From: Candidatus Woesearchaeota archaeon
GTDB taxonomy: Archaea > Nanobdellota > Nanobdellia > Pacearchaeales > GW2011-AR1
Length of the DNA: 64,000 bases
Reading direction: 5' to 3'
Assembly: GCA_964547875.1 (NCBI GenBank)
Contig: CAZJPE010000001.1
Span: forward strand, 38,535-102,534
The translations under genes and the position numbers were made by a program. Within the stretch, counting starts at the first letter, position 1; each line of letters opens with the position of its first letter. Shown in pieces: positions 12,221 to 49,850 of the stretch. The notes under the pieces were generated by a model, which saw only the letters and a program-made list of their open reading frames with translations, was not told the origin of the DNA and made no database searches.

Positions 12221-13399
12221 ATGAAACATAAAGCTGAAGATTTAGAGAAAGAAGAGATTAGGGATAAAAGAGAAAGGAAGCATAAAAAGGAAAAGCATGC
12301 AGGGCGTCATATAGAACATAAAAAACCAGAACATCACGAGCATAAGCATGTTAAACATCCTAAAGAAGAGAAAGATAAAAATAAGAAAAAGATAGAAAAG
12401 CCTGAGAGCGAGGAGGTTCATGCCAAGGACGAAAGGCCTAATAACGCGGAGATGAATAGATATTCTGAATTTATTTTTAGGATGAAAAAGGAGATTGCAA
12501 AGGTTATTACAGGACAGGAAAAGATTATTGATAGCCTTATAATGGCTTTGCTTTGTGATGGGCATGTTTTGCTAGAAGGCGTGCCTGGAATTGCAAAGAC
12601 ACTGGCTGTGAGAACCCTTGGCATAGCGAGCGGGTGCAGTGTTAAGAGAATACAATTTACAGTTGACTTGCTACCCACAGACATAACCGGCATAACTACT
12701 TATACTCCTGGAAAGGGATTTGAGACTATTAAAGGGCCCATTTTTGCTAATTTTATAATTGCTGACGAGATTAATAGAAGTCCGAGTAAGACGCAATCTG
12801 CTTTGATTGAGGCAATGCAGGAAACGCAGGTTACAATAGGGAAAGAGACTTTTAAATTGCCAACTCCATTTTTTGTCATGGCAACTGAAAATCCGCTTGA
12901 GCAGAGCGGGGTTTATACTTTGCCAGAAGCGCAGATAGACAGGTTTCTTTTTAAATTGCTAATGGGATATCCTACATATAACGAAGAGAAGAAGATAATG
13001 GAGGAGAATATGACATTAAAGAAATTTGAGGAATTTAATATAAGAGCAGTAATTTCTCCTAACGATATTTTAAAGGTGCAGAAGTTAACTAAAAAAGTTT
13101 ATTTAGACGACAAAATAAAAAGATATATTCTTGATATTGTAAAAAGAACAAGGACAAAGGATTTTAAGTATGGAGAGTATATTGAATGGGGCAGTTCGCC
13201 GAGAGCGAGCATATCATTGTTTATAGCCTCTAAAGCGAAGGCTTTAATGAGCAGGAGAAATTTTGTTATTCCGTCTGATGTCAAGGCGATTGTGCATGAT
13301 GTTATGAGGCATAGGATTATTTTGAATTATAGGGCAAGGGCAGAGGGTGTTGATAGCGACAAGATAATAAATGAAATTCTGACTGTGGAAAATATTTGA
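12221..13399 (+). CDS. MoxR-family AAA+ ATPase with a His/Lys-rich N-terminal extension
   Basis: Walker A LLEGVPGIAKT; Walker B IIADEINRSPSKTQSALIEAMQE. The N-terminal ~80 aa are K/E/H low complexity (EHKKPEHHEHKHVKHP). Confidence 0.85.
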   Translation: MKHKAEDLEKEEIRDKRERKHKKEKHAGRHIEHKKPEHHEHKHVKHPKEEKDKNKKKIEKPESEEVHAKDERPNNAEMNRYSEFIFRMKKEIAKVITGQEKIIDSLIMALLCDGHVLLEGVPGIAKTLAVRTLGIASGCSVKRIQFTVDLLPTDITGITTYTPGKGFETIKGPIFANFIIADEINRSPSKTQSALIEAMQETQVTIGKETFKLPTPFFVMATENPLEQSGVYTLPEAQIDRFLFKLLMGYPTYNEEKKIMEENMTLKKFEEFNIRAVISPNDILKVQKLTKKVYLDDKIKRYILDIVKRTRTKDFKYGEYIEWGSSPRASISLFIASKAKALMSRRNFVIPSDVKAIVHDVMRHRIILNYRARAEGVDSDKIINEILTVENI

Positions 13400-13405
13400 G
13401 TTACA

Positions 13406-13711
13406 ATGAGAGAGATTGATGAATCTTATTTGGCAAGAAAAATTCGCGATATTTGCAGCGAATCTAAGTCTAATTTAGACATATTTACCTCTCTTGTTTC
13501 AGACAAGGGAGAAAAGGAATATAACAGGATTGATTACGAGGCTTTTTTCACTCATTTTATAGGCATGATAGAGACTATGACACTAATTAAACTTTATCAG
13601 TCAAATTTTAATAGAGAAAAATTTGGAGACATGAAGTTTCATTTAGAAGATTATATTGCAAAGACAAAGAAAAATTTAGTTGAAAGCCTATTGAAGAGGG
13701 AATATGATTAG
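13406..13711 (+). CDS. Hypothetical protein between MoxR and DUF58
   Basis: ORF only; its ends abut moxR and overlap the DUF58 gene. Confidence 0.35.
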   Translation: MREIDESYLARKIRDICSESKSNLDIFTSLVSDKGEKEYNRIDYEAFFTHFIGMIETMTLIKLYQSNFNREKFGDMKFHLEDYIAKTKKNLVESLLKREYD

Positions 13712-14606
13712 ACAAAAACTAAATGTTAATGTTCCAAGGGCTATTACTGAATTTGAGGCAGCTGCGAAGGAATTTGAATTAAAAGAAAAATTATATAGGA
13801 TTATTTTTCGGGGCAAGGGTTTAGAATTTGATAAGTATAGGGATTATGCTCCTGATGAGGATGCAACTAGTATAGACTGGAAGGCGAGCTTAAGGGCAAA
13901 TAAATTAATTGCCAAGCAGTACATAGAAGAGAGGGATTTGAATATTGTTTTTGTTTTTGATATCAGCGAAAACATGCTGTTGGGCTCTGCTGATAAATTG
14001 AAATGCGAGTATGCTGTAGAGATATTTGCAGCATTGGCTCATTTGATAATAAGCTCTAATGACCGAGTTGGGATTGTTCTTTTTGGCGATGAGATTAAAA
14101 ATTTTATACCTCCAAAAGGAGGAACAAATCAGTTTTTTAATATTGTTGACATACTATCAGATCCTTCCACATACAGCGGGGGATCAAGGATTGATAAATT
14201 ATTAAAATTTATTTTGGCGTATTTAGGGAAGAATGTAGATGTGGTTATTTTTATTTCTGATTTTATCAGGATGAATGACAGAGTTTTGAACGATTTATTT
14301 TTGGTTTCTCACAAATTTGAGAGCGTGGCGATAATGGTTAGAGATATGCTGGACAAAACTTTTCCTGAAATTGACAGAGAATTAGTAATAGAAGACCCTA
14401 TTACAAAAGAGCAGGTTCTTATAAATCCCAAGATGATAAAACAAATATACGAGAAAAGTGCATTAGAAAGGGATAGGGTTGTTAAAAGTATTTTTAGAAA
14501 AGCAAATATTGACCTTTTGGAATTAATGACAAATAAAACTTTTGCTTTTGATTTAGCAGGTTTTTTGAGCGAGAGGGCAAATATGGGAAAGAAATTTGGG
14601 AGATGA
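13704..14606 (+). CDS. DUF58 (vWA-like) protein, MoxR partner
   Basis: VFVFDISENM...DRVGIVLFGD...VVIFISDF, the typical DUF58 core; conserved gene order after MoxR. Confidence 0.75.
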   Translation: MIRQKLNVNVPRAITEFEAAAKEFELKEKLYRIIFRGKGLEFDKYRDYAPDEDATSIDWKASLRANKLIAKQYIEERDLNIVFVFDISENMLLGSADKLKCEYAVEIFAALAHLIISSNDRVGIVLFGDEIKNFIPPKGGTNQFFNIVDILSDPSTYSGGSRIDKLLKFILAYLGKNVDVVIFISDFIRMNDRVLNDLFLVSHKFESVAIMVRDMLDKTFPEIDRELVIEDPITKEQVLINPKMIKQIYEKSALERDRVVKSIFRKANIDLLELMTNKTFAFDLAGFLSERANMGKKFGR

Positions 14607-14934
14607 ATTTATGAAAGCTTTATGTCTGAAAGAGCCATGGGCGTCCATGATAAAGGGAGGAGTGAAAACAATAGAAACTAGAAAATGGAAAACAAGTTAC
14701 AGAGGAAAAATACTTTTATGTGCAAGCAAAAATCCAAAATCTTCAATTAGCGGCAATGCATTTGCGATTGCAGAATTAATTGATTGCAGAAAAATGATTG
14801 AGGAAGATGAGAAGTTAGCATGCTGTAAAGTTTATCCCAAAGCCAATTCATGGATATTAAAAAATATAAGAAACATTGAGCCATTTCCAGTTAAAGGAAA
14901 GTTAGGGTTATTTGAGATTAGTGAGGTTAATTAA
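14596..14934 (+). CDS. ASCH (PUA-like) domain protein
   Basis: MKALCLKEPWASMIKGGVKTIETRKWKTSYRGKILLCA matches ASCH domain starts. Confidence 0.6.
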   Translation: MGDEFMKALCLKEPWASMIKGGVKTIETRKWKTSYRGKILLCASKNPKSSISGNAFAIAELIDCRKMIEEDEKLACCKVYPKANSWILKNIRNIEPFPVKGKLGLFEISEVN

Positions 14935-15074
14935 ATGGTAATAGTAAAAAGAAAGAACAAATGGGTATTATTGACTAAAGATAAAAAGAAAAAGCTTGGA
15001 GAGTTTAGAACATATAAGGCAGCATTGAAGCGCGAGAGGCAGATAATTTTCTTTAAGAATATGAGATAACTAAT

Positions 15075-16025
15075 TTACACACGCTCACTTTTTAGGAGCG
15101 TGTCTAATAAATAAGTTCTTTTAATTAGAGTACCCACCTACGTTTACTTAGGAGGTGGGTACTATGTTACCTAGATGGTGTAATGAAGTCTATGACTTAA
15201 ATGTTGCGTTTTCTATAATGCGTAGGATAGTGCAGCAAAGTAAGATAGTGAAAGGAGGAAGAGGAGCTAAGCCGAAGCATAATCCGACAAAGTATGCTTT
15301 GACTCTTGCATTGAAAGAAATGCAAAATAGAAATCTAAGAGAAACAGAATGTCATTTAACGAAATATGTCTGCGACGAAAGAGTAGACCATTCTGTTCTT
15401 TCTTATTGGGAGAATAAAGAAGAAATGCCAATGATTATTGCTAAATTTATCAGCATAGCTGGAGCTATGCTCGATAAGGCCTTATCGTCGCTATTCAGCT
15501 TTGTTGATTCAACAAAATTTACGGGCTGGGATGTGAAAGAAATAAAATTGATAGAAGTAACTGTTTGCAATAGAATTGCAGATATGTCAGTTTATCCTGT
15601 TGGAATTAGCTTTCTTAGAAATGACGTCGTCTCTCCTGTCAGAGAAGCTGTTCCAAACGGAATAGGAAAGATAAAGGCAGACGCGTGGTACGATGAAATA
15701 GATACTATCAAGCATCTGTTTAAGATTGGGTATACGCCAATAATCTGCCCAAACAAAACTCGTTACAGAGGATTTTACAGAAGGAAAGCAAGAAAAATCT
15801 ATAGAATGCCTGAAAACAGATTAGCTTATAGGCAGAGAGGAAGAGGAGAAAGTATGTTCGGCAGTCTGACAAACGAGCATGGAGACAGATTAAAAGCAAG
15901 AAACGTAAATGCTATCAGAACAAGGATAGCGGCGAGGATATTCTGCTATCAGATAAAGTTATTGATACGGATTCAATTAGCACTAAATGTGCTAATTGTT
16001 AGACACGCTCACTTTTTAGAAAGCT
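15075..16025 (+). mobile_element. Insertion sequence with an IS4/IS5-superfamily DDE transposase; ends marked by the repeat acacgctcactttttag (15079-15095 and 16003-16019) with a palindromic core
   Basis: A direct 17-bp repeat at both ends. The left end forms a hairpin acacgctc/gagcgtgt. A second perfect 10-bp hairpin gtacccacct/aggtgggtac (15130-15162) overlaps the transposase RBS GGAGGTG. Exact termini are uncertain. Confidence 0.6.
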
Positions 16026-16048
16026 TTTTAAAGGGGGGGCGTAGATAG
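15164..16048 (+). CDS. DDE transposase (IS4/IS5-like, DDE_Tnp_1 type)
   Basis: D in FVDSTKF, D in KADAWYD, E in the YRQRGRGESMFGSLT motif (Y-2-R-3-E-6-x signature); ~295 aa. SD GGAGGTG lies 6 nt upstream of ATG 15164 (the track starts at GTG 15155). Confidence 0.7.
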   Translation: MLPRWCNEVYDLNVAFSIMRRIVQQSKIVKGGRGAKPKHNPTKYALTLALKEMQNRNLRETECHLTKYVCDERVDHSVLSYWENKEEMPMIIAKFISIAGAMLDKALSSLFSFVDSTKFTGWDVKEIKLIEVTVCNRIADMSVYPVGISFLRNDVVSPVREAVPNGIGKIKADAWYDEIDTIKHLFKIGYTPIICPNKTRYRGFYRRKARKIYRMPENRLAYRQRGRGESMFGSLTNEHGDRLKARNVNAIRTRIAARIFCYQIKLLIRIQLALNVLIVRHAHFLESFLKGGRR

Positions 16049-16051
16049 AAT

Positions 16052-16363
16052 ATGAAAGGAAAAATAATTTTGTTACTAAGCTCAATGCTTTTAGTTGGGC
16101 TTGCAGTTTTTGTTTCTGCTTCTATGAGCTGGCAAGGTAATGGACCTAATGTACCTTATAAAGTTGAACTTGAACTGAATAAAGGATGGAACATAATTGC
16201 AGGAACACTACCTGAAGATGGAATATTAAGTGATAGTGAAATTCAGGCATCAGACATTAAAGCAATGTGGTATTATTCTCCGAAAACCAAAGAATATAAG
16301 GTTTATATTAGACGAATTAAAAAGGCGTCCTGGCATTATAAAGTAACCCAGGACAGTTATTAA
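16052..16363 (+). CDS. Small secreted protein, hypothetical
   Basis: Signal peptide MKGKIILLLSSMLLVGLAVFVSAS. Confidence 0.45.
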   Translation: MKGKIILLLSSMLLVGLAVFVSASMSWQGNGPNVPYKVELELNKGWNIIAGTLPEDGILSDSEIQASDIKAMWYYSPKTKEYKVYIRRIKKASWHYKVTQDSY

Positions 16364-16461
16364 TATTACAATATTTCTCTACTTTAAAAATCCTTCGGTT
16401 GCCTGATTTTTTAAAATCTTCTTTTTTCTAAGGATTTTCGAAATAGCGCAAGTTTAATAAA

Positions 16462-16824
16462 GTGCTGGAGATAGAGATTAATATGAGATATCAGCTAGAC
16501 ATTAGGGGTGATGAATTCTTAGACTATGTTTTTGAAGGGCCTGATGATATTGCAGGCCTGATGAATTTTGCAAGCAGAATTGAGAAATTGAGGAATGTTG
16601 GATATAAATTTGCCGAACAGATATTATTGCCAGAATTCCTGAGTAGAAATAAAGTTCCAGAAGATATTGCAGAAGATGTGTGGATTCATATGGGTTATAT
16701 AAATAGAGAAGGTATTAATTCAGCTAGTTCGTATGAACAAATAGAAAAAATCGAGAGAGATTATAATTTAGGTAGAGGAAAGTTAATAGGGCTTTTAGAT
16801 GTGGCATTAGGTAAATACCCATAA
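16462..16824 (+). CDS. Hypothetical protein
   Basis: ORF only; acidic, no recognisable motif. Confidence 0.4.
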   Translation: MLEIEINMRYQLDIRGDEFLDYVFEGPDDIAGLMNFASRIEKLRNVGYKFAEQILLPEFLSRNKVPEDIAEDVWIHMGYINREGINSASSYEQIEKIERDYNLGRGKLIGLLDVALGKYP

Positions 16825-16838
16825 AATAAAGTAGAAAG

Positions 16839-17762
16839 ATGGTGTCAATAAGTTTTTTGTATCCGAGATATTTGTTTTTCTTATTTTTAATCCCCTTGTT
16901 TATTTTTATTCATATTGTTACATTAAGAGCTTCTAGGACTACTGCTTTAAAATTTGCGAATTTTGAGGCGATTGCGCGCATTAAGGGAGTTGATTTTTTT
17001 TCCAAGAATATTATAACCTTGTTTTTAAGTATTCTTATAATTTTTTTATTAGTTATGGCAGTTTCAGGATTGACTTTACATACAACTATTAAAGCAACTG
17101 ATTATTCTTTTGTTATAGCGTTAGATAGTTCAGAAAGTATGGGGGCTAATGATTTATTGCCAAATAGGATGGAGGCTGCTAAGAGAGCGGCTGTTGCTTT
17201 TATTGACGCACTTCCTATAACAACTAGAGTTGGAGTTATTTCTTTTTCAGGGAATGCTATTATTGAGCAGGATTTGACTGAGAGCAAAAGCTCTATGAAA
17301 AGCGCTGTAAATGAGGTGCAAATCAGCGAGATATCAGGGACAGATGTTTATGAGGCAGTTATCACAGGAACAAATTTGTTGAGCGCGGAGAATACAAAGG
17401 CGATTATTTTATTGAGCGATGGGCAGATAAATGTCGGGACAATTAATGACGCTATAGTTTACGCTAATGAGAATGATATTGTTGTGCATACAATTGCTAT
17501 TGGAACAGAAGAAGGCGGGGAAACTTCATATGGATTGTCAAAATTAGATGAAGATTCATTGAAAGCGCTTTCTTATAATACAAACGGGCAGTTTTTCAGG
17601 GCTTTGGATGAAAATGAACTTTCCAATTCTTTTAATGAAGCAATTGCAAAAACAGAAAGAAAAGTCGGAATTAATCTCGCTGATTACTTGCTTATTGCTT
17701 CTATTCTGCTGTTTGCCTTTGAGTATTATTTGATAAATAGCAGATATAGGAGATTGATTTAG
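16839..17762 (+). CDS. von Willebrand factor A domain membrane protein (BatA/BatB-like)
   Basis: Two N-terminal TM helices; MIDAS VIALDSSESM...SGT...LSDG; C-terminal TM. Neighbourhood with MoxR/DUF58. Confidence 0.75.
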   Translation: MVSISFLYPRYLFFLFLIPLFIFIHIVTLRASRTTALKFANFEAIARIKGVDFFSKNIITLFLSILIIFLLVMAVSGLTLHTTIKATDYSFVIALDSSESMGANDLLPNRMEAAKRAAVAFIDALPITTRVGVISFSGNAIIEQDLTESKSSMKSAVNEVQISEISGTDVYEAVITGTNLLSAENTKAIILLSDGQINVGTINDAIVYANENDIVVHTIAIGTEEGGETSYGLSKLDEDSLKALSYNTNGQFFRALDENELSNSFNEAIAKTERKVGINLADYLLIASILLFAFEYYLINSRYRRLI

Positions 17763-17942: not shown

Positions 17943-19466
17943 CTAATCAAACAACTTAGAAACCCATCCACTAATTGTATTCCCAATCCAACTTCCAAGT
18001 TTTTGGAAGAAAAATCCTTCTCGCTCATACTCGCCAGAAACAGGACTAGAAGTGCCAGAACTGCTTCCGCTTGGCGATACGCTGGCAGTTCCAAAAGCAC
18101 TAGGCGACCTAGAAGCAGATGAAGTCACACTTCCTTTAGGCGTCTTAGTAGAAGATATTTTAGGTGAGGGTGATTTAGAGGCTGTGACAGAAGCGCTAGG
18201 AGCTCTAGATCCAGAAGGATAAGCACTAGGAGTTCTAATAGGTCTAGTAGCAAAAGGAATAGGAGATATCTGCGTAATAGGTAGAGAAACAACATCATTT
18301 CCCTCTTTGTCAGTAACTATAAGATCCTTAGCCCCTTCAACAATAGGAATTTTTAAATGAAAATCAATTGCGCTTCTCTCAAATATCTCACCCTCTATAC
18401 TACCCTCCTCGTCAGGCGTTTCTTTAGGTTTGTCCGTATATATATAATCTGAATTTTTATAAACCTCTCCTTCTATTCCAACAACATCATATTGTCCTTC
18501 TTTGTTTAATTCGTACAAAGGAGCGTCTGTAAATATCTCTTCATGATTAAATCCGCCAAGTGCAACCTTGCTTCCATCATTCAAGATAATGCTGTATGAC
18601 GAATCTCCTTGGCTGATTCTTCCAGCGCAACCACTTCGAACAGCCTTTCTAATGCTAAAATCACCATTAACCCGCTTCCCTTCTATAAGCCAATACCTCT
18701 CTTCTGAGCAATCTCGTCCTTTACTAATGGCTCTTCCCGTTATCCCAGAATTTGTATTCTTTGTTAGCTCCAATATTTTGTTCTCTATAACCCACTCGTT
18801 AAAATTTCCATAATTATCAACTCTTAAAGTGCGCATAACGCCCTCTTCTACAGAGCGGAAATAATCGTGGCGAGAACAGCCTTCGTAACAGCCATCATTC
18901 TTTCCAAAAAAATCCTCGCAATCAGCAGCGCAGTTCCCGGCAGAATTTTTCGGGATATTTGCAGGCACGTATTCTTCTGCCAAGCTGACAAAACTATGCC
19001 CGAACTCATGTGCCAACACGCTAAGGGGATGTCTCGTATTAATGCTCATAACATTTAGATAAGTAGAACTTCTAAAATTTGTATTGTAATCATCGTTCAA
19101 TATCACAATCTGATCATTAGGGCATGAAGCTGCTTTTACAATTAACTCGCGCGAATAGCAAAACAAAGCAATATTATTATAAAGCTCACAAGGAGGCTTA
19201 TAATTAATATAATAAAAATTAAATCTTTCTCTGAAACCATTTACTGGCTCTAAATTAAGAAAATAATCAGTATATTTCTCTACATCATCTTTATTATCTG
19301 CAAAAAAAACGAGAGAAATTGCGTTATCGCCTGATTCTCTTATGATATTACACTCCTCCAGTCCATAACTGTCGGGGCTTAGATAAGCTCTCCAAAAAAA
19401 TAAAAAAACCAATCCAACAATAGCAACTAAAGCAAGAAAAATCCATAAAAAAATTAACTTTCTCAT
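17943..19466 (-). CDS. Secreted zinc metallopeptidase (HExxH) with S/P-rich linker and C-terminal W-rich tail
   Basis: N-terminal signal/TM; HEFGHSFVSLAEEY zincin motif; long Ser/Pro/Thr-rich linker; terminal FQKLGSWIGNTISGWVSKLF. Confidence 0.6.
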   Translation of the reverse strand: MRKLIFLWIFLALVAIVGLVFLFFWRAYLSPDSYGLEECNIIRESGDNAISLVFFADNKDDVEKYTDYFLNLEPVNGFRERFNFYYINYKPPCELYNNIALFCYSRELIVKAASCPNDQIVILNDDYNTNFRSSTYLNVMSINTRHPLSVLAHEFGHSFVSLAEEYVPANIPKNSAGNCAADCEDFFGKNDGCYEGCSRHDYFRSVEEGVMRTLRVDNYGNFNEWVIENKILELTKNTNSGITGRAISKGRDCSEERYWLIEGKRVNGDFSIRKAVRSGCAGRISQGDSSYSIILNDGSKVALGGFNHEEIFTDAPLYELNKEGQYDVVGIEGEVYKNSDYIYTDKPKETPDEEGSIEGEIFERSAIDFHLKIPIVEGAKDLIVTDKEGNDVVSLPITQISPIPFATRPIRTPSAYPSGSRAPSASVTASKSPSPKISSTKTPKGSVTSSASRSPSAFGTASVSPSGSSSGTSSPVSGEYEREGFFFQKLGSWIGNTISGWVSKLFD

Positions 19467-19597
19467 GCCTTTTTAACACATAACAATCTTTTAAATGTAT
19501 CACATTATCCTTTAGATAAAAATAAGACACTTTATAATCTTTAGATAGTTGCAACAATTTTGTAAATACGATTGAGCTTACGAAAAAATAATTTTAA

Positions 19598-21343
19598 TTA
19601 ATAAATGCATCTCAAATTATCAGTGTTAACATAATCATAGCCTTCTAGAGGATAAGGATACGAAAGCTGCACTCGTCCGAATATATAACCTAAAGTATGT
19701 ATGGGATCTGTAAGATTAATTCTCCCATCATCATCTGAATCAGCTGCATCCATACAATCTATCCCAGAGCCATTAAATAAATAAAGTAATGTCTTAATCG
19801 GGTCTGAAATATCTATGGTTTTATCATTATTCGCATCTGCTCTGATAAATTTCCTCGGGCATTGGATTCTATCCTCTAATATTTCTCCCTCTAATGAACA
19901 AAAAACTGCTGCCAGCGTGTCAATTCTCGGAAATACCAAGCCATTTCCCTCGTCTGTTACAGGAACTCCGGTTGTCTTTAAAATATTAACAATTTCATCA
20001 TATTTAAGATTAGGATTTACTTGTTTCATCAATGCAATTGTCCCAGAAACGTGAGGCGCAGCTGCTGACGTTCCTGCACCGCCCTCATATCCCCCATTTA
20101 ATGTTGTTGATCTAATATCAGCTCCTGGTGCCATCATATCCAAAATATCAGCACTATTAGAGAAACACGAAACTTTATCTCGTGTTGCATTCTCTGTGCA
20201 TCGCTCTAAACATTCTCTAGTATTAACATCTCTTTCAACGCAAAAATTAACTTGACCTAGATTAGTGTCATAAACAGCTCCGACTGAAATAGCATTTAAA
20301 GAGCATGCAGGAGAATTAATGCCATTCTTAAAACCATCATTACCTGATGCAATAACAAAAGGAAGATTAAAAGAATAAGCTCTATTTATAACAGAATCCA
20401 TCCAAGTTGGACAATTTGATGAATTATAATTCCCAAAGCCGATACTCATACTCAAAACATCTATCTCAAATTCATCCTTATTATCAATACACCAATCACT
20501 ACCTGCTATCATAGTAGAGGCAGAGCAATCAACATCGCATACTTTTATAGCAAGCAATTTCGCATTTGGAGCAACTCCAATTACGCCTCCATTAGCAGCA
20601 GCAATTCCTGCGACATGTGTTCCGTGACCATATATAGCATCAGGATCAGCATCATTATTAACAAAATCATATCCTCCAATCACTTTACAATCTGCTCCAA
20701 AACATCCTCCTAAATCAGGATGAGTATAATCAATTCCGTCATCTATTATAGCTATAACCTGCCCATCACCCTTTATATTTATTGAATTAATCTCCATTCT
20801 ATGGGCGTCATCTGCATTAATCAGAGGAACGCTCTGCGCTAAAGATGTATGAAAAACACTATCTAAATAAACAGATTTTACATTATTATCATTATTCAAT
20901 TTCTTCAAACCATTTAGAGTTATCTCGCCTGCAAATCCAGGAATTGTTTTATATTTAAATCTAAGAGAGAAATCAGAATCAGATAATTCAGATAAAACGC
21001 TATCCTCTTTAATCCTTATCTTTTCTTTATATTCTTTAAACTTATCTTTATTAAATTCCTCATCATGCAATTCAACAATAACGCGAATATAATTTTCTCC
21101 TTTTATTTTATCAAAAATCTCTGACTCTATTTTTGAATTCATGCCAACAATCTGCTCTAAATTATCTCCTTTTTCTCTAATTTCTATCTTAGTATTTTGC
21201 TTTAAATAATCAGTCTTTATATTATCATGTTCCTGAGATAAAGCATAAGAAGATAATCCTCCTAAAACTAGAGGAATAGATATTGTCCTCCCTAACAAGT
21301 ACATTCTTTCTTTTATTTTTTCTAAATATCTCATATCTTTCAT
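19598..21343 (-). CDS. Subtilisin-like serine protease (S8) with C-terminal dockerin-like Ca-binding module
   Basis: Catalytic triad contexts DDGIDYTHPDL / HGTHVAGIAAA / GTSAAAPHVSG. C-terminal DANNDKTIDISDPIKTLLYLF and DSDDDGRINLTDPIHTLGYIF resemble a type-I dockerin duplicated segment. Confidence 0.85.
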   Translation of the reverse strand: MKDMRYLEKIKERMYLLGRTISIPLVLGGLSSYALSQEHDNIKTDYLKQNTKIEIREKGDNLEQIVGMNSKIESEIFDKIKGENYIRVIVELHDEEFNKDKFKEYKEKIRIKEDSVLSELSDSDFSLRFKYKTIPGFAGEITLNGLKKLNNDNNVKSVYLDSVFHTSLAQSVPLINADDAHRMEINSINIKGDGQVIAIIDDGIDYTHPDLGGCFGADCKVIGGYDFVNNDADPDAIYGHGTHVAGIAAANGGVIGVAPNAKLLAIKVCDVDCSASTMIAGSDWCIDNKDEFEIDVLSMSIGFGNYNSSNCPTWMDSVINRAYSFNLPFVIASGNDGFKNGINSPACSLNAISVGAVYDTNLGQVNFCVERDVNTRECLERCTENATRDKVSCFSNSADILDMMAPGADIRSTTLNGGYEGGAGTSAAAPHVSGTIALMKQVNPNLKYDEIVNILKTTGVPVTDEGNGLVFPRIDTLAAVFCSLEGEILEDRIQCPRKFIRADANNDKTIDISDPIKTLLYLFNGSGIDCMDAADSDDDGRINLTDPIHTLGYIFGRVQLSYPYPLEGYDYVNTDNLRCIY

Positions 21344-21629
21344 AATGTATTAATATTATTTAAACCTTGCTGTTACTTATAAGTAAGTATGTTATTATTT
21401 AATAGGGGAAGTAAATAAGTTTAGCAAGAGTCCAAAATAATGTTCTAAATTTACTTCATAAGTATAACTATTATTTTTAATTACCAACTAAAACCCACGA
21501 CGATAAAAATATTTTATGTTAACTACCATCAAAATACGCTGTCAATTATTTTAGAAAGGGATTAATGTCACTTACTATTTCTATTTAGTTATTATTAATA
21601 TATCTTTGTAATCTTAGAGAAGTTTTAAT

Positions 21630-22706
21630 CTATACCTTTATCAAAACAATTTCACTAGTAAACCATCCTGTAATGGTTTTAGTAAGCCATCCAACAAGTC
21701 TTTGATAAAATGGCTTCTCTCCTGCAGGAGAAAAACTAATAGGGCTTCCTGATCCTGAAGGGCTACCTGACGCTGAAGGGCTACCTCCAGCACCACCGCC
21801 AGAACCACTGCCAGAACCAGAATCAGGAGGAGGCGCAGGCGAACTTGGTGATTCAGATCCGCTGGAACTTGTTCCTCCACCACCTCCCACACTTTCAGGA
21901 ATACATACTCCGCTTGAGCAAAGATTGCTTGCACATTCTCCCGGGGAATCACATTTATATCCTAAATCACAGCTTAATTCTGAAGAATCATCTCCTGGAG
22001 GATTATTATTACAATCAATTCTCGTTTTCGGTAAAACACACAATCCACCTAAATATTTAAGTCCCTGACAACAATCACGACTATTCGGCGCATAACTTCC
22101 AGCAGTTGCACAACTGATTTGACAAACATAGGTTCTTTCGCTAGAGCCCCAACACCAATCAGTTTTACACTCTTGAGAACAATCACACTCTACTCCACTA
22201 GTACAATCAAGATTATCATCACATTGTGAAATAGGATTATTCTCACAAACAATTTCAGAGCCTCTATATTGCTCAAGCCTATCCTCTTCTGTACTATCTT
22301 CAACATCTCGTGAACTATCGTCAATTACCTCATTTGCTTCACTTGACTCATCACTAGCTTCTCCAGCACCTTGCCCACTCCCACTTCCTCCTGCAGGAGA
22401 AAAACTCTCGTCAAAAGCCAAATAAGCAACAAACTCTCGCCCATCTAATATATCAACTACTCCATCCTCATTAACATCTGCGTTCTCTCTGCAATTCAAT
22501 CCTTCTCCACGAAAATATCCATTAATATGCGTTATGTCATTCTCATCAATTCTGCCATCACCATTGGCATCACCCTTTAAATCAGTACATCTTGGTATAT
22601 GTCTAAAATAATAAATACTTCCAGAAGCTACAATTACAAATAAAACTATTCCAAAAATAATAAAAATATTTTTATATCTGTTTGATGAATCTACCTCTCT
22701 TTTCAT
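21630..22706 (-). CDS. Surface protein with dockerin-like repeats, Cys-rich module, G/S-rich linker and C-terminal W-rich tail
   Basis: N-terminal TM; DANGDGRIDENDITHINGYF and DVNEDGVVDILDGREFVAYL dockerin-like segments; a module with more than 20 Cys; terminal FYQRLVGWLTKTITGWFTSEIV. Confidence 0.55.
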   Translation of the reverse strand: MKREVDSSNRYKNIFIIFGIVLFVIVASGSIYYFRHIPRCTDLKGDANGDGRIDENDITHINGYFRGEGLNCRENADVNEDGVVDILDGREFVAYLAFDESFSPAGGSGSGQGAGEASDESSEANEVIDDSSRDVEDSTEEDRLEQYRGSEIVCENNPISQCDDNLDCTSGVECDCSQECKTDWCWGSSERTYVCQISCATAGSYAPNSRDCCQGLKYLGGLCVLPKTRIDCNNNPPGDDSSELSCDLGYKCDSPGECASNLCSSGVCIPESVGGGGGTSSSGSESPSSPAPPPDSGSGSGSGGGAGGSPSASGSPSGSGSPISFSPAGEKPFYQRLVGWLTKTITGWFTSEIVLIKV

Positions 22707-37682: not shown

Positions 37683-40646
37683 ATGACAGAAAGAAAATTA
37701 ATTAAATTTATTTTGTCTAGTTTTATAATAGTTGTTTTAGTATTTTCTATTCCCGGAGTTATTGCCCCCTCACATCCTGATAATATAGATTTTATAATAG
37801 AAGATGTCGATACTATTATATATTATGAATGTGGAAGTATTGATGGCGCAATTGCTTCTTCAATTTCACATGACATGGGGATTCCTTCTTTTTGTGGCGA
37901 ACATGATTTGGTTCATGAAGATTTTTTAACTGAATTTAAAGATGATGGCTTATACGCAAATGTAAATAGAGTTGTTATTCTCGGTGGCGAGGCTGTTGTT
38001 CCTAGTGAAGTTCAGCAGGTTTTAGATATACATGGAGAAGTTGTTGGAGGATATGATACTTATAGAATAGAAGGAACAACTGCAACAGGAACTGCTGTTG
38101 AAGCTATTGAATATTTTTATGGTCCAGAGATGCTACAAGAAGTTACATTAGTTGCTTATGAAGGAGATTCTAATTCTGATTACAATGAAGTTCTGCATTT
38201 AGCTGCAGAATCAGATGGAGGTATTATTATTCCTGTTCCATCTGATGCTAATGGTTTGCCTGCGGAGGTTGTTGAAACTTTAGATACAATTAACCCAGAT
38301 GAAAGTATGACTATTAATATAATAGGAGATTTTGAGCAAGAAGCAATTGTAAAAGATGACATCCAAGAAATAGGAGCTGTAGTAGAAACAGAAATAGACG
38401 GAACTAATCCTGAGGTTGTTGAAGAGCAAGTAGAAGAGTTAGTAATAGAAAATATTCAGCCTGGAGAGTCAGTTGATATAGTTTATGTTGAAGAGGGAAG
38501 CCAGCCTCCTGTTGTGCAAGATGAAATAGTTATATTTTATACAGATGAAAATAATGATGGTATAGATGACGAAAGCGGAAGCGCTTTAGACGACATTGGA
38601 GTAGGATTATATAATGAGTTAATTGAAAAAGGAGCAAGCGTAGATGATATTAAATGTACTGGCAGTCATACTTCTGTTTGGGCTGATTTTGAGGTAGAAA
38701 TAGAGGGAAGAGGAGAGTTAGTTGAGGTGGTAGAATATACAAATGCAGAAGATTTAATTGGAATTGAGCTGACTACTGATAAGGAACAGGCGGAAGAGAT
38801 TTCTAATGAATTTAAAGAAGAGGAAGATGAATGGGCAGAATTAGCAGAACAGCATAAGGCAGAATTTGGAGCAGCACTGCCTTCTATGATTGAGCAGTTT
38901 AAGGCGTATTATATTGAAATAAAAGATACATTATCTCCAGAGGCTTTGGAACTAGCTAATAAAATAATAGACGAGGGAAATAAAGGGGATTCTGTAGCGC
39001 AATGGCAATTAATGCATGCTTTTGCTAATTCTTATGAGCATGAAGAATACGTTGAGAATTGCCATACTGATGAGGCTTGCAGAAACGAACATGTAGAGAT
39101 GGAATATTTGAATACTGAAGATGCTCTTGTTGAATTTGTTGGAACTGATAGGGCTGGAGAAATTACTAATTTAGATTTTGGAACTAAGGTTAAATTATTG
39201 GGGATGGATGATTTTGTCCCTCCTACGCCTGAAGAAGAAAGTGCGTTTAAGGCAGATATAACTGAAATCTTAGCAACCGGAGCAAGCATAGAGAGTTTAC
39301 CAGCTGAATATGTTAATGAAGTTAAGGGAGAGGCTTATTCTATATATGCTGAAGAATTGAAGAGCGAATATGAGGCAGCCGGTAGGACAACTGAAGCAGC
39401 TGCTTTAACTCCTGAAGAAGTAGCGAGAATATTTGATGATAGATTAGTTGTTGAGAGTGAGGCTTATTTGTCTGGACTTGTAAGCCATGAAGATTTTGCA
39501 GACCCTGCTAAGAGGGCAGAGACTATGGCAAAGATGGAGAGTATTCATAGCGAATTTGAGAGCAAAGGCGTTACAGAAAATTATTATTTGACACCTGAAT
39601 ATTGGAAAGAGGCTTATAATAAATATACTACAGATGGGACTTTGCCAGAGAATTTTGTTAAAGAATGCGAAGCAGCTGTATCTAGTTATAGGACATGGGA
39701 AGAAGCTTATCCAGGGGTTTCTTATGATCCTCGTGACTCATTCTATAATGCAAAGACCGGACAGTTTAGTTATACAGATCATGAAAATAGGGTTGTGTCA
39801 GGAGTTTATGACGGAACTGAAGGAACTTACACATTTACTAATGAAAATGGCGAATTAGTGCAGGGAACTGATGTAGGAGAGGTGAATAAGTATACAGGCG
39901 ATTATGGAGGATGGACTTTTGATAAAAGCTCTGGCTCATGGAAAGGACCAGGCGGAGAGACATATATACCCCCATCTGTTTATAATCCTGTTACAGGAAC
40001 ATATGATTACCACCCTTCTTCAGGCGAACATAGCGATGTCGATGGTTATATTTATCAATGGGGAAGCAAGGGACTTTCTGGAGGAATTTATACTGGGCCA
40101 GGCTCGGCATGGACTGCTCCTGAAGGATGGACACAGAGTTCTGATGGAACATGGACAAGTTCTGATGGACAGACATATTCTGCAAGCACATCTTATTATA
40201 GTCATTCTGGCAGCGAAGGATTTAAGAGCAGTGGAGAGGTATGGACACAGAGTTCTGATGGAACATGGACAAGTTCTGGAGGAGCAACTTATTCTGGCTA
40301 TCACGATAGTGGATCTTATAGTTATGTTTCTCCTTCTGGCGAGAGTTATAGTGGAGGAACATATAGTGGTAGCGAAACCGGGACATATGGCCCAGCAGCA
40401 GGTACAACACAGATAGATCCCTCGGGAAATACATGGACACAGAGTTCTGATGGAACATGGACAAGTTCTACTGGGGAAACATCTAGTGTGGGAACATCTA
40501 CTGGAGGAACAACAACATCCGGGACGACAGATAGTGGAGGTGGATCTGCTCCTAGCGGTGGGGATGGTGGCGGTGGAATGACAGGACATGCAATATATGA
40601 CTCTTCGTTAACAAGAAGCTGGTTAGGTAGATGGCTTTTGGGCTAA
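37683..40646 (+). CDS. Large (987 aa) highly acidic secreted protein with C-terminal WTQSSDGTWTSS repeats
   Basis: Signal/TM start; Glu/Asp-rich; repeats near 40125-40500; terminal SWLGRWLLG. Confidence 0.6.
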   Translation: MTERKLIKFILSSFIIVVLVFSIPGVIAPSHPDNIDFIIEDVDTIIYYECGSIDGAIASSISHDMGIPSFCGEHDLVHEDFLTEFKDDGLYANVNRVVILGGEAVVPSEVQQVLDIHGEVVGGYDTYRIEGTTATGTAVEAIEYFYGPEMLQEVTLVAYEGDSNSDYNEVLHLAAESDGGIIIPVPSDANGLPAEVVETLDTINPDESMTINIIGDFEQEAIVKDDIQEIGAVVETEIDGTNPEVVEEQVEELVIENIQPGESVDIVYVEEGSQPPVVQDEIVIFYTDENNDGIDDESGSALDDIGVGLYNELIEKGASVDDIKCTGSHTSVWADFEVEIEGRGELVEVVEYTNAEDLIGIELTTDKEQAEEISNEFKEEEDEWAELAEQHKAEFGAALPSMIEQFKAYYIEIKDTLSPEALELANKIIDEGNKGDSVAQWQLMHAFANSYEHEEYVENCHTDEACRNEHVEMEYLNTEDALVEFVGTDRAGEITNLDFGTKVKLLGMDDFVPPTPEEESAFKADITEILATGASIESLPAEYVNEVKGEAYSIYAEELKSEYEAAGRTTEAAALTPEEVARIFDDRLVVESEAYLSGLVSHEDFADPAKRAETMAKMESIHSEFESKGVTENYYLTPEYWKEAYNKYTTDGTLPENFVKECEAAVSSYRTWEEAYPGVSYDPRDSFYNAKTGQFSYTDHENRVVSGVYDGTEGTYTFTNENGELVQGTDVGEVNKYTGDYGGWTFDKSSGSWKGPGGETYIPPSVYNPVTGTYDYHPSSGEHSDVDGYIYQWGSKGLSGGIYTGPGSAWTAPEGWTQSSDGTWTSSDGQTYSASTSYYSHSGSEGFKSSGEVWTQSSDGTWTSSGGATYSGYHDSGSYSYVSPSGESYSGGTYSGSETGTYGPAAGTTQIDPSGNTWTQSSDGTWTSSTGETSSVGTSTGGTTTSGTTDSGGGSAPSGGDGGGGMTGHAIYDSSLTRSWLGRWLLG
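40129..40480 (+). repeat. Three near-identical 36-nt copies (tggacacagagttctgatggaacatggacaagttct) encoding WTQSSDGTWTSS
   Basis: Copies at ~40129, ~40243 and ~40436 seen directly. Reverse-strand ORFs here (40020-40589) are spurious Cys/Ser-rich mirror frames. Confidence 0.6.
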
Positions 40647-44750: not shown

Positions 44751-47700
44751 ATGACAGAAGAAAATAACGAAAAGAAAATTGACGAAGCGATTGAGGAAAA
44801 GGAAAGAGAGAGAAGGAAGAAGGACATGATTGAGAATGGCGTTCAGGGAACTGAAATAGTTGAGGAGATGGAAAAATCTTACATTGATTATGCGATGTCT
44901 GTGATTGTGCAAAGGGCGCTGCCTTCTGTTGAAGATGGCTTGAAACCAGTGCATAGAAGAATTTTGTATTCAATGGAGCAGCTTGGGCTTGATGCTTCAA
45001 AGCCTACAAAAAAATCTGCTACTATTGTAGGAGATGTTATTGGAAAATATCATCCTCATGGAGACATTGCTGTTTATGATGCGCTTGTTAGATTAGCGCA
45101 GGATTTTTCTTTGCGCTATCCTCTTGTGCATGGGCAAGGAAATTTTGGCTGCTTCACAGCAGATACAAAAGTTAAACTTGCTGATGGCAGAGATTTATCT
45201 TTTATTGAGTTGATTGAAGAAAACAATAATGGGAAAAGGAATTTCACATTTACAATAGATAATGGCATTGTTAAAATAGCAGAAGTAAAAAATCCTAGAA
45301 TGACTAAAAAAAATGCAGAGATTATGAAAGTTTTTCTTGATAATGGTCAGGAAATCAAATGTACATTAAATCATTTATTTATGTTAAAGGATGGAAGCTA
45401 TAAAGAAGCAAGAAATCTAAAATCTGGGGACTCGTTGATGCCTCTTTATACGAAACTATCTACTGAAACTGACAGCCTAAAGAATCCAAAAACCATTGGC
45501 TATTCGATGATATTTCAGCCAAAATTAAAATCTTGGAATTTTATTCATATATTGGCTGATGAGTGGAATTTAGATAATAAAATATATGCAGTAAATTCTG
45601 GCAGAATAAGACATCACATTGATTTTAATAAGTTAAATAATAATCCTATAAATATCAAAAGAATGCATTGGAAAGAGCATTGGCAGACACATTACAATTT
45701 AACTTCTTCAAGACATAAAAATGATTTAGATTATAGAAAGAAATTGGAAGAGGGAAGGAGAAGGTTTTGGAGCGACGCTAAAAATCGAGAAGTTTATTCT
45801 CAAAGAATGACTGAAAGAAATTTAGAGAATTGGAAAAAAAGCAGTTATAGAGAAGAAAAACGCATTCAACTTAGTGAAATTAATAAAAAATATTTTAAAG
45901 AGAATCCAGAAGCTATAGAAATAATAAGAAAAAGAGCTTCTATAACTATGAAAAAAATGTGGGAAATTCCAAGATATAAAGAACTTTTTCATGAAAAAAT
46001 TGTCGCTTCTAATAAAAATAGAAAATCAAATCTAACTGGAAAAAAGAAATTTTTAAAGATATGTAATTATTTGCTGACTAAGAATTTACCATTAACAAAA
46101 GAAAATTTTGAAAATATTAGACAAAATATTTTTGGAATAAAAAGCTTTACCAGTTGGAATCATGGAATTAAAAAACATTTTAATGGAGATAAAAATTTAA
46201 TTTTAAATGAATTAAATGGGAATCATAAGGTTGTAGATATAGAATTTATCAATCAACATACTAGCGTTTACGATCTAACAATTGATGATACGCATAATTT
46301 TGCCCTTTCGGCAGGGATTTTTGTGCATAATTCATTAGACGGAGATTCAGCTGCAGCCTATAGATATACAGAAGCACGATTGAGTAAAATCTCTCAAGAG
46401 CTTTTGGCAGACATTGACAAAGAAACTGTCAAGATGAATCCGAATTTTGATAATTCTACAAAAGAACCAGAGACATTGCCTGCTAAACTGCCTAATCTCT
46501 TACTAAATGGGGCGACTGGAATAGCAGTCGGCATGGCTACTAACATACCTCCGCATAATTTGATAGAGTTGTGCGATGCTATTATTGCGTATATTGACAA
46601 TTCAGATGTCAGTATAGATGAACTTTTGCAGATTGTTAGAGGACCTGATTTTCCAACTGGAGGACATGCAATGGGGCCTGGAATTTTAGAGATGTACAAA
46701 ACAGGAAAAGGAAGGATAGTCATGAGAGCTAGAACCTCAATAGAGGAGAAAAAGGGAAGAGAAAACATAATTGTTACAGAGATTCCTTATATGGTTAACA
46801 AGGCAGAGCTGGTTAAGGATATTGCGAGGCTTGCAAGCGAGAAGAGATTGTCTGACATTTCTGACATATGGGATGAATCTGCAAAGGGAAAGATAAGAAT
46901 TGTTATCGAATTGAAGAAAGGCGTTGATTCAAAATATACGATAAACAGATTATACAAATTGACTAATATGCAGACTAATTTTGACGCTAATGTTTTAGCC
47001 TTGGTTGGCAAACAGCCGAGAGTGCTGAATTTGAGGGATGTTATTGTTGAGTATGTTAAATACAGAAGAATGATTGTTACTAATAGAAGTAAGTTTGAAT
47101 TGAAGAAAGCAGAAGATAGATTAGAAATTGTTCTCGGATTATTGATAGCCTTAAAGAATATAGATAGCATTGTTGAGCTTATAAAAAAGAGCAAGACAGT
47201 CAGCGAAGCGCATGAAGGGCTTATGAAGAAATTTGATTTTAGCGACAGACAGGCAAGGGCTGTTTTAGAGACGAAATTGCAGCAGCTTACTTCATTAGAG
47301 CACACAAAATTAAAGGAAGAGGAGCAGAAGCTGAAAGAGACAATAGAATATCTGAAAAATGTTTTGGGCTCTGACAAAGAGATTTTGAAAATTATCAAGA
47401 AAGAGGTTAATGAGCTGAAGAAGGAATATGGAGATGAGAGGAGGACTAAGATCGTGAGAAAGATTGATGAAATTTCTGAAGGCGACTTGATTGAGAAAAA
47501 AGACGTTGTTGTTATGCTGACAAATTCTGGATATATCAAGAGAGTTGATCTTAAGACTTATAAAGAGCAGAAAAGAGGAGGGGCAGGCGTTATGGGTACG
47601 GGATTAAAGGATGATGATTTTGTGAGAAAGATGATTAGCTGTTCAACTCATGATTATTTGCTGTTCTTTACAAAAAGAGGCAGAGTTTACTGGCTTAAGG

Positions 47701-48464
47701 CGCATGACGCTCCTGCTGCAGAAAGACAGGGTAAAGGAAGAAGCATTGCAAACTTACTGAATTTAAGAGAGGAGGCAATTGCCAATGTTATGGCTATTAC
47801 TAACTTTGAATCTGGGTATTTAATGTTTGCTACAAAATTAGGAATTGTGAAGAGGCTGCCTTTAAAGGATGTTTCTAATCCCAGAAGCACGGGAGTTAGA
47901 ATAATGAATCTGCCTGCTGACGGGAGTGACGAGATAATTAATGTCAGCAGAGTAGAGGATGGGCAGGAAGTATTGATTATCACAAAGAAAGGACAGGCTA
48001 TTAGATTTAATTCCAATGATGTTAGGGCTATGGGTAGAGCGAGTTATGGAGTCAAAGGAATTGATTTAGCAAAGAATGATTTAGTTGTTTCTTTAATGGC
48101 TGTTCCTAAAGATGGAAAGACAACTGTTCTAACACTAACGGAAAAGGGATTTGGGAAGAGGTCTGATATTGTGGAATATAGAAAAACTGCGAGAGCTGGA
48201 AAGGGCGTTATTAATTTAAAGACAAATGACAAGACAGGAAGCGTTATTGCATCTGTAGCTGTGAATGACAAAGATTCTGTTATTATTACTACAACAAAAG
48301 GCAATATTATAAGAATTCCAATGAAGGACTTGAGGGTTATGGGGCGAGCAACTCAGGGAGTGAGAGCTGTAAAGCTCAAGGAAGGAGATAAGGTTGCCGA
48401 TGTTGTTCGAGTCCCTGTAATGATTGAAGACTCTCGTTTTGCTGATATGTTTAGTAATCTTTAA
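44751..48464 (+). CDS. gyrA: DNA gyrase subunit A interrupted by an in-frame intein (extein ~843 aa)
   Basis: [23 protein letters not shown], catalytic Tyr in [32 protein letters not shown]-terminal beta-pinwheel repeats. A 394-aa insertion sits between GQGNFG and SLDGDS. Confidence 0.9.
45150..46331 (+). mobile_element. Intein (394 aa) with HNH-type homing endonuclease inside gyrA
   Basis: Starts with Cys ([13 protein letters not shown], block A); block [13 protein letters not shown]-like [24 protein letters not shown]; blocks [24 protein letters not shown] followed by Ser+1. Confidence 0.85.
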
Positions 48465-49400: not shown

Positions 49401-49850
49401 TTAATATTTCCAATTATAATATCCTGCGAGAGTTTCGTAACGAGGCTCGTAGTAATATGATTTCGTGTAAGCGTTAAAATTGTTGTCGTAATCTCTATCA
49501 TAATAATTGTAAGGCATTTTATACCTCCAATTTGAATAAGAGGGATAGGAATATTTGTATAAAGGCGCTCTGGGATAAGGCCTGTAATAATAATCGCCAT
49601 AATATTGGTTATAATCTCTTTCTATAGTTGTTCTCCTTGTTGTTGAAAGATATATCTTTTCTCTTCCCCATGGGTAATAATTTGTATAGTATTCTTTGTC
49701 ATAGGAATATGATGTTTTTCTGTAATCGTCATCATAATTGCTGTAACCATAGCTATGAGGAGGATAGTAATAGGAATAGCCTGCTGATGCTAAATTAAGG
49801 GAAAATAGCGCTGTTAAGAGTATCACTGCAAAGAGATATTTTTTGCTCAT
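49401..49850 (-). CDS. Secreted, extremely tyrosine-rich low-complexity protein
   Basis: Signal peptide MSKKYLFAVILLTALFSLNLASA. The mature part is ~30% Tyr (YSYYYPPHSYGYSNYDDDY...), rich in D/R/N/P, no Cys. Confidence 0.5.
   Translation of the reverse strand: MSKKYLFAVILLTALFSLNLASAGYSYYYPPHSYGYSNYDDDYRKTSYSYDKEYYTNYYPWGREKIYLSTTRRTTIERDYNQYYGDYYYRPYPRAPLYKYSYPSYSNWRYKMPYNYYDRDYDNNFNAYTKSYYYEPRYETLAGYYNWKY

Follow-up and report, generated by a model that had tools for sequence, protein, structure and literature searches.

Positions 17943-22706 of a 64,000-nucleotide stretch of DNA from a Candidatus Woesearchaeota archaeon (contig CAZJPE010000001.1; the whole stretch is hereafter called the window) are occupied by three minus-strand open reading frames (ORFs), which encode an M64-type metalloprotease (p1), an I9/S8 subtilase (p2) and a Cys-rich protein (p3). 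Here, we describe a short tail, built around the unit Ile-Thr-Gly-Trp (ITGW), that closes both p1 and p3. The tail is a lineage-restricted, conserved and amphipathic C-terminal element, and its most likely role is peripheral membrane attachment. Dockerins are carried by p2 and p3, in two forms that we call type B (p2) and type A (p3). The best explanation of the three genes is that they form one conserved module for extracytoplasmic proteolysis in a Woesearchaeota-like DPANN archaeon. Literature searches returned no earlier description of the ITGW tail or of DPANN dockerins.

A conserved tail on two neighbouring proteins

The metalloprotease ends ...FQKLGSWIGNTISGWVSKLFD and the Cys-rich protein ends ...YQRLVGWLTKTITGWFTSEIVLIKV, in each case after a linker that is Ser/Pro-rich in p1 and Gly/Ser/Pro-rich in p3, and the two tails share 7 identical residues over 17 ungapped positions. 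A hidden Markov model (HMM) of the tail, derived from 17 sequences that all belong to other organisms and not to the window, was searched against 484 six-frame ORFs of the window (45,003 residues). Only p3 (29.3 bits, E 1.8e-8) and p1 (27.3 bits, E 7.9e-8) match, far beyond chance, and the next best ORF reaches 4.4 bits. Across its carriers, which are 13 of 45 M64 homologues and four homologues of p3 (P0047, P0048, P0049 and P0196), the tail is 16-28 residues long, contains one or two ITGWFxK units and has the core (R/K)-I-T-G-W-F-S-K-(I/L)-F-(D/G/E)-COOH. In the long form a second copy of the unit lies upstream, as in LTGWIGK-TITGWFGKLFD. An initial annotation of the locus had proposed a conserved C-terminal element shared by p1 and p3. 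The element is real and conserved, as judged by the independent HMM, by its carriers in other genomes and by an identity on a par with that of the catalytic domain; the motif given for it was, at its start, shifted by one residue for p3, where [FY]Q[KR]L is correct rather than F[QY][KR]L, and the rest of it was right.

Compared with P0001 and P0003, p1 is 79% and 71% identical in the tail and 71% and 67% identical in the catalytic domain; for p3 and P0048 the figures are 86% in the tail and 53-57% in the folded domains. Linkers next to the tails are only 26-40% identical and barely alignable, and that of p1, at 35-40% identity to its homologues, can be aligned only poorly. The tail is a selected unit, conserved like the catalytic domain and set beside a hypervariable linker. 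Its position is strictly C-terminal, at the stop codon or at most 8 residues before it. Stop-codon recoding was ruled out as the origin of this position, because TAG, TGA and TAA all terminate tails among the homologues and further in-frame stops follow soon after. Recent gene conversion was likewise rejected: the p1 and p3 tails are not recent copies of each other, because their nucleotide identity is only 67%. In addition to its C-terminal tail, P0048 has an internal tail-like segment (...GAFAFWKDFFSKFFAPKD...) upstream of its Cys-rich domain.

The tail is restricted to two gene families, each the neighbour of the other. A degenerate DNA pattern for ITGW[FLVIM][ST]K[ILVFM]F, applied to one genome per species in 185,579 species, gave 63 matches, where 40-100 are estimated by chance; two are genuine, both in Woesearchaeota M64 proteins, one codon from the stop and after a Ser/Pro linker. 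All four matches of the pattern in viral contigs are chance matches. In 80 metagenomic loci around M64 relatives, the tail occurs only on the M64 genes themselves. A search of a word index of 5.8 billion proteins with 15 tails returned 155 word-sharing candidates, none at E <= 10, which is a sign of rarity only, and a search of GTDB genomes for relatives with p1 alone found none.

The genomic neighbourhood of the tail is conserved too. A tailed M64 gene, a gene for a Cys-rich protein with dockerin and tail, and an S8 gene with a type B dockerin stand side by side in the window, and the same holds for L146 (Woesearchaeota GCA_964362915.1) and L147; gene orientations differ among the three. A tailed M64 gene occurs together with two other type B dockerin proteins in L148, and alone, as far as the flanks are readable, in L003 and L005. 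L146, L147 and L148 come from two NCBI assemblies and one sequencing-run assembly; two further loci, L001 and L151, are the window's own contig.

Proposed membrane attachment and its alternatives

Hydrophobic residues of the tail recur at i, i+3 and i+4 for up to six helical turns, in P0003 over 22 residues, and in a helix a Phe/Trp/Ile/Leu stripe lies opposite a Gly/Thr/Ser/Lys stripe. Most tails have a helical hydrophobic moment of 0.35-0.56 and a low beta-strand moment, and z is at least 1.2 against shuffled sequences in 16 of the 20 tails tested (ITGW-type and looser aromatic tails). For p1 the moment is 0.37 (z = 2.3). On the same scale, the proven C-terminal amphipathic anchor of Escherichia coli PBP5 has a moment of 0.43 (z = 2.5).

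The PBP5 anchor is a useful point of comparison. According to PMC2909392, the last 18 residues of PBP5 are a membrane-binding helix that holds the protein on the outer face of the inner membrane, and both its localisation and its function depend on them. The anchors of PBP5, PBP6 and DacD (Pratt et al. 1986; O'Daniel et al. 2010; both via PMC2909392) lie at the extreme C-terminus of Sec-exported hydrolases, a position that the tail shares. Like these anchors, the tail has ~18-24 residues, is rich in Phe, Trp, Ile and Lys, and has a similar hydrophobic moment and interfacial free energy, with a local resemblance in FFGKI...WFG. When the C-terminus of DacA (PBP5) is read from the K-12 genome, the ends of P0013 (...SFFGKINGWFVKWFG) and P0144 (...GFFGRVADFFKNLFG) are strikingly similar to it in kind. 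The comparison is one of analogy only, given that there is no detectable homology and that the class is functional rather than a homology family. The archaeal tail also differs in having its own conserved ITGW unit, sometimes duplicated, in following a long disordered stalk where the PBP5 anchor abuts a folded domain, and in its putative target, an ether-lipid membrane. N-terminal hydrophobic segments are present in all tail carriers, and by sequence the tail would belong with the PBP5 type, as a predicted amphipathic helix of ~18-24 residues at the extreme C-terminus of an exported protein.

On this analogy, the best reading of the tail is that of a peripheral membrane anchor, to which we give about an even chance of being right. 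Both p1 and p3 would be held at the cell surface, each ending in a flexible Ser/Pro-rich stalk followed by the tail. The tail would fold into an amphipathic helix that rests in the interface of a lipid bilayer, much like the 18 residues of PBP5, and would so tether the protein at its C-terminal end without spanning that bilayer. The subtilase would leave the cell by way of a cleavable signal peptide; it also has an I9 propeptide, and its type B dockerin lies at the C-terminus. It is usual for archaeal surface proteins to have a Ser/Thr/Pro-rich stalk beside a C-terminal anchor. Three unrelated dockerin proteins (P0144, P0084 and P0078) have clear AxA-type signal peptides and end in a linker and then an aromatic amphipathic tail, which would be their only possible anchor. 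In the M64 family itself the C-terminus takes four states: nothing (short forms of ~370 amino acids, aa), a dockerin alone, a dockerin with stalk and tail, or a transmembrane (TM) helix with a basic cluster. The ending of TM helix and Lys/Arg cluster is found in P0014, P0016 and the L028 protein, and the short forms have neither tail nor TM ending.

Several observations weigh against such an anchor. The helical moment fails to reach significance in p3 (z = 1.2) and in P0047 (z = 0.5), and the helix that AlphaFold (AF2) draws at aa 487-505 of p1, after a disordered stalk, has a predicted local distance difference test (pLDDT) score below 50. In P0014 and P0016 the TM anchor is reached through extra beta domains and not through a Ser/Pro linker, so the positional equivalence of TM ending and tail is loose. 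In both p1 and p3 the N-terminal hydrophobic run spans 22 residues and may be an uncleaved anchor. A second attachment to the same membrane would then be redundant, and the tail might instead contact some other protein, hold p1 and p3 together or extend to a different membrane. Although the Thr-Gly of ITGW is polar and would be dispensable in a generic amphipathic anchor, it hardly varies, which hints at specific recognition or helix-helix packing. Finally, a tail that is confined to two neighbouring families rather than spread broadly suits a motif of mutual interaction too.

The last two points lead to a reading of the tail as a helix-helix association motif, which would pair p1 with p3, form homo-oligomers or plug into a protein of the surface layer (S-layer) or envelope, with the trio in one complex. 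Such a motif would fit a near-invariant Thr-Gly-Trp and two families encoded side by side; small residues (Gly, Ser and Thr at i, i+3/4 and i+7/8) run as a stripe along the non-aromatic face, as in small-xxx-small packing, and the 3-4 spacing of the hydrophobic residues is compatible with a coiled coil. We nevertheless consider it unlikely. No p3-type gene accompanies the tailed M64 gene in the readable flanks of L003, L005 and L148, looser non-ITGW tails are found on unrelated dockerin proteins, and short C-terminal helices rich in aromatic residues and Gly are more typical of interfacial membrane binding.

The initial annotation had suggested an anchoring or sorting tag. Anchoring remains plausible, but a processed sorting signal, which a sortase-, archaeosortase-, exosortase- or rhombosortase-type enzyme would remove while attaching the protein covalently to lipid or wall, is so improbable that we give it very little credence. 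The resemblance to PGF-CTERM, PEP-CTERM, LPXTG and GlyGly-CTERM signals lies in a short conserved motif, here one containing TG, at the extreme C-terminus after a low-complexity linker. The three-part architecture of such signals (motif, TM helix and Lys/Arg cluster) is missing: ITGW is followed by 6-10 mixed polar and aromatic residues that usually end in D, E or G, and no NCBIfam CTERM model matches at E <= 1. Known sorting systems have many substrates per genome, whereas the window, the GTDB pattern matches, the word index and the gene neighbourhoods yielded only two substrate families, with two copies in ~73 kb, and no conserved candidate processing enzyme in the neighbourhoods. Other surface proteins of the window end in ordinary TM and basic C-termini.

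If the N-terminal segments were uncleaved anchors, the catalytic domain would sit on the archaeon's own membrane with the stalk pointing outward, and the tail might act in trans: from the end of an 80-100-residue stalk it would insert into or perturb the membrane of a host cell and bring proteases and dockerins there. Its composition seems akin to that of amphipathic membrane-active peptides. The homologues are annotated as Nanoarchaeota, Pacearchaeota or Woesearchaeota, lineages generally regarded as host-dependent. This proposal is entirely inferential and we regard it as improbable, given that an archaeal Ser/Thr/Pro stalk normally stands beside the cell's own membrane anchor and that the homologues with cleavable signal peptides are better suited to self-anchoring. 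A bolder version would make the ITGW tail a new archaeal attachment device that does not span the membrane and that, on a ~25 nm stalk, hooks proteases and dockerins onto the host membrane, with the dockerins engaging cohesin-type modules on the host surface instead of a partner from the archaeon's own genome, and the trio serving as part of the apparatus by which Woesearchaeota-like archaea attach to a host and feed. We consider this a long shot. Peripheral membrane anchoring remains the reading that we prefer.

Proteases and dockerins

The M64 assignment of p1 rests on its zinc site and its fold. The HEFGH motif (an HExxH zinc site) and one downstream Glu are invariant across 30 homologues, and an AF2 model based on the alignment of these 30 has its best Foldseek matches in the Thomasclavelia ramosa IgA peptidase and Bacteroides BF3526 (E 1e-7 to 1e-5), with a fold match probability of 1.0. 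One homologue carries the NCBI name 'M64 family metallopeptidase'. Identity to M64 structures (the T. ramosa IgA peptidase, BF3526 and BACOVA_00663) is only 10-20%, however, and the score against Pfam PF09471 is slightly below the cut-off (23.4 bits against 26). The p1 family also differs from these proteins in having a beta domain of its own, and its long forms add dockerin, stalk and tail. Most long-form relatives of p1 have a Pfam-type dockerin; p1 itself has none. Its N-terminal segment is a signal peptide or else a signal anchor. A conserved internal ITG.AI motif of the M64 family, which recalls the TG-containing tails, stands between the catalytic domain and the beta domain, in a loop modelled with low confidence. 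A partial M64 homologue, P0021, is assigned by NCBI to 'Candidatus Daviesbacteria', a bacterium of the candidate phyla radiation (CPR), which reflects either a binning error or transfer between episymbiont lineages.

The second protein, p2, is an S8 subtilase: Pfam detects Peptidase_S8 (156.7 bits) and the Inhibitor_I9 propeptide (25.4 bits), and the translation shows the Asp, His and Ser motifs DDG, HGTHV and GTSAAAPH. In both p2 and p3, duplicated Ca-binding segments had been taken for dockerins from the letters alone, and both bear this out, by different routes. The p3 module exceeds the Pfam Dockerin_1 cut-off of 22.9 bits (36.7 bits as an isolated module and 28.3 bits in the whole protein) and scores 79.9 bits against an HMM of the lineage's dockerins. 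Its repeats of Ca loop and helix lie at aa 46-65 and 77-96, with D/N/D/D/D at loop positions 1, 3, 5, 9 and 12 in both.

The p2 module, with repeats of a 12-residue loop and helix at aa 503-523 and 535-555, is a genuine dockerin, though its subclass goes undetected by Pfam. It falls below the gathering score of Dockerin_1 (6.9 bits, E 9.8) and below the cut-off of EF-hand_7 (18.8 bits against 30), but a profile of 12 Pfam-type dockerins of the lineage matches it at 24.5 bits. A phmmer search among 1.84 billion representative proteins, seeded with p3, found many proteins with a C-terminal module of the p2 form, F.RGD.N.DG..DISDP...L.YLF.GG....C.DAAD.NDDG..DISDPI..L..LF.GG..PP.P.P..G.DPT.D.L.C. 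Against an HMM of 23 such type B modules, p2 aa 499-579 scores 84.0 bits; hhalign relates type B to the lineage's Pfam-positive dockerins with 98.8% probability (E 5e-17), and a type B profile search of the PDB has as its best matches the solved type I dockerins 4fl4, 1daq and 2mte (E ~9e-6), with both repeats aligned. The AF2 model of the module is confident (pLDDT 92.2, predicted template modelling score (pTM) 0.83), and 30 of its 31 Foldseek matches in the PDB are dockerins, with root-mean-square deviations (rmsd) mostly of 1.4-1.9 A, over 62-68 columns for the best matches, and target-normalised template modelling (TM) scores mostly of 0.75-0.85. Searched alone against the word index of 5.8 billion proteins, the p2 dockerin gave one candidate and no match. 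Type B alignments show two conserved Cys residues, one between the Ca loops and one ending the Pro-rich extension, which could form a disulfide 'clasp'.

Both modules share with type I dockerins (PF00404) two tandem repeats of ~22 residues, each an EF-hand-like 12-residue Ca loop plus helix; p3 passes Pfam, and the p2 model superposes on solved dockerins within the rmsd range given above. Differences are that p2 forms a separate subclass with two conserved Cys and a C-terminal PxPxP...D.L.C extension, that the p3 dockerin is N-terminal and adjoins the hydrophobic segment, and that the modules sit on a protease and a Cys-rich protein rather than on glycoside hydrolases, with no cohesin or scaffoldin seen. 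The Cys-rich domain of p3 has no relative in Pfam, NCBIfam or, by sequence search, the PDB. Its unit 1 is approximately C.NNP...C(D)..L.C..G..CDC..EC.SG.C..G.C and its unit 2 approximately CWG....VCQ.SCA..GSY......CC.GL....G.C; there are two units in p3 and at least five in P0047 and P0196, a variable copy number that brings a scaffold to mind.

The dockerins had also been taken to imply cohesin-type partners and a cellulosome-like surface assembly, and for this we found no support. Cohesin (PF00963) was found neither in Pfam scans of 33 window ORFs nor among the Pfam hits precomputed for L001, L151, L146, L147 and L148, a search that, for the archaeon's own genome, covered the window and ~9 kb beyond it (~73 kb in all). 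The p1 beta domain was considered as a cohesin and rejected, there being no cohesin among its Foldseek matches. A cellulosome has a multi-cohesin scaffoldin and dockerins on carbohydrate-active enzymes. Here the dockerin carriers are an S8 protease, M64 relatives and a Cys-rich protein, none of them carbohydrate-active, and neither a glycoside hydrolase nor a scaffoldin was found in the window or the syntenic loci. Nothing in the window, the ~9 kb beyond it or the syntenic loci points to a cellulosome.

The idea could still be saved by cohesins on a scaffold whose gene lies elsewhere in the genome; the dockerins would bind these and build up a multi-enzyme surface complex resembling a cellulosome, a 'proteasome-on-a-scaffold'. 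The p2 and p3 modules are true dockerins with intact Ca-ligand positions, archaeal cohesin-dockerin pairs do bind according to PMC9012536, which cites Haimovitz et al. 2008, and two dockerin subclasses in one gene cluster would suit two binding specificities. We still think this complex distinctly unlikely, given that the scans above returned no cohesin, a p1 beta domain unlike cohesin and a locus free of carbohydrate-active enzymes. Dockerins on surface-tethered proteins would moreover reverse the polarity of a cellulosome. PMC9012536, citing Peer et al. 2009, describes non-cellulosomal dockerins and cohesins as widespread in archaea, and archaea with dockerins as generally lacking multi-cohesin scaffoldins. 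As part of the proteolysis module, the dockerins would act as Ca-dependent protein-protein connectors, with no partner encoded nearby.

The locus and other features of the window

The window has a G+C content of ~33% and corresponds, as the reverse complement, to positions 149,551-213,550 of ENA ERZ27284378 k139_317676, a metagenomic contig of 290 kb. It includes an archaeal housekeeping set (Kae1, GyrB, an intein-containing GyrA and tRNA synthetases), and nearly all named homologues of the proteins studied here belong to Nanoarchaeota, Pacearchaeota or Woesearchaeota, which identifies the organism as a DPANN archaeon (NCBI kingdom Nanobdellati). Coordinates are collected in Table 1.

Table 1. 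Positions of the features in the window (nucleotides), with strand and, for parts of proteins, residues.
Feature	Positions	Strand	Residues (aa)	Description
p1, M64-type metalloprotease	17943-19466	minus	507 in all	N-terminal hydrophobic segment, catalytic domain, beta domain, Ser/Pro linker, tail
p1 N-terminal hydrophobic segment	19380-19463	minus	2-29	AF2 helix 2-29, pLDDT ~90; contains the 22-residue run
p1 HEFGH zinc-binding motif	18996-19010	minus	153-157	invariant columns in homologue alignment
p1 ITG.AI motif	~18726-18746	minus	~241-247	conserved in M64 family
p1 linker	18018-18263	minus	402-483	Ser/Pro/Thr/Ala-rich; pLDDT ~30, no secondary structure
p1 tail	17946-18017	minus	484-507	GFFFQKLGSWIGNTISGWVSKLFD
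p2, subtilase	19598-21343	minus	581 in all	signal peptide, I9 propeptide (88-166), S8 catalytic domain (192-459), C-terminal dockerin
p2 type B dockerin	19607-19849	minus	499-579	two Ca loops, two conserved Cys, PxPxP...C extension
p3, Cys-rich protein	21630-22706	minus	358 in all	hydrophobic segment (13-34), dockerin, acidic linker, Cys-rich domain, Gly/Ser/Pro linker, tail
p3 type A dockerin	22404-22583	minus	42-101	passes Pfam Dockerin_1 (PF00404)
p3 Cys-rich repeat domain	21921-22271	minus	146-272	also in P0047, P0196, P0050-P0054
p3 tail	21633-21716	minus	331-358	KPFYQRLVGWLTKTITGWFTSEIVLIKV
MoxR-type AAA ATPase, DUF58 and vWA/BatA genes	12221-17762			directly adjoin the trio
IS-type DDE transposase gene	15155-16048			between DUF58 and vWA genes
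987-aa protein	37683-40646		987 in all	very acidic, exported; no Pfam or NCBIfam match
GyrA gene	44751-48464		1237 in all	intein (Pfam Intein_splicing) at 143-527
Tyr/Asn-rich ORF	49401-49868	minus		no Pfam match
Rhs/YD-shell polymorphic-toxin locus	53500-64000	minus		runs ~8.7 kb further past the window end (L151)
RHS-type ORF	57827-59182	minus		common Cys ending
RHS-type ORF	59693-61051	minus		common Cys ending
Barstar gene	~61349-61642			
Cassette with barnase-type ribonuclease tip	61639-62688			
RHS-type ORF	63077-63970	minus		common Cys ending

The 987-aa protein has three WTQSSDGTWTSS repeats and ends ...MTGHAIYDSSLTRSWLGRWLLG. Its W-rich tail had been grouped with those of p1 and p3. 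The string SWLGRWLLG is indeed present, after a Gly/Ser/Thr-rich stretch, but the grouping is wrong: the tail profile does not match it, and its end is not amphipathic (moment 0.10). The end of the M64 homologue P0004 (...TGNTIFDKIGRWLRGVNVT / ...TGNTIFDKIGRWLRG) is loosely like ...TGHAIYDSSLTRSWLGRWLLG of the 987-aa protein, and the two may possibly represent a second tail type.

Elsewhere in the window, the toxin locus comprises, in L151, a 1520-aa TcdB/RHS protein and a 1122-aa YD-shell protein, followed by the barnase-type cassette, the Barstar gene and several orphan RHS-repeat cassettes. The three RHS-type ORFs share Cys endings (GGCGVIMSCI, GCGKIMSCA and GGCNKVMSCA), which by their letters make up another conserved C-terminal element, the second in the window. 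Like GyrA here, a CDC48-type ATPase of the related locus L146 bears an intein. The Tyr/Asn-rich ORF owes its name to a C-terminal half of extreme composition (...YSYPSYSNWRYKMPYNYYDRDYDNNFNAYTKSYYYEPRYE...).

Discussion

DPANN archaea are mostly uncultured, and how they display their surface proteins is largely obscure. Known archaeal solutions for anchoring are a transmembrane tail, a lipobox, or PGF-CTERM with archaeosortase. If the ITGW tail is a peripheral anchor, it would depart from all of these, and it would provide a simple sequence marker for the surface-tethered proteins of this lineage. Since Pfam misses type B dockerins, surveys of environmental genomes probably count too few dockerins. 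These findings leave current understanding in place; they add a new lineage and a new combination for known modules (dockerin, amphipathic anchor, M64 and S8). For work on how such reduced cells obtain peptides, the conserved protease trio offers a concrete target.

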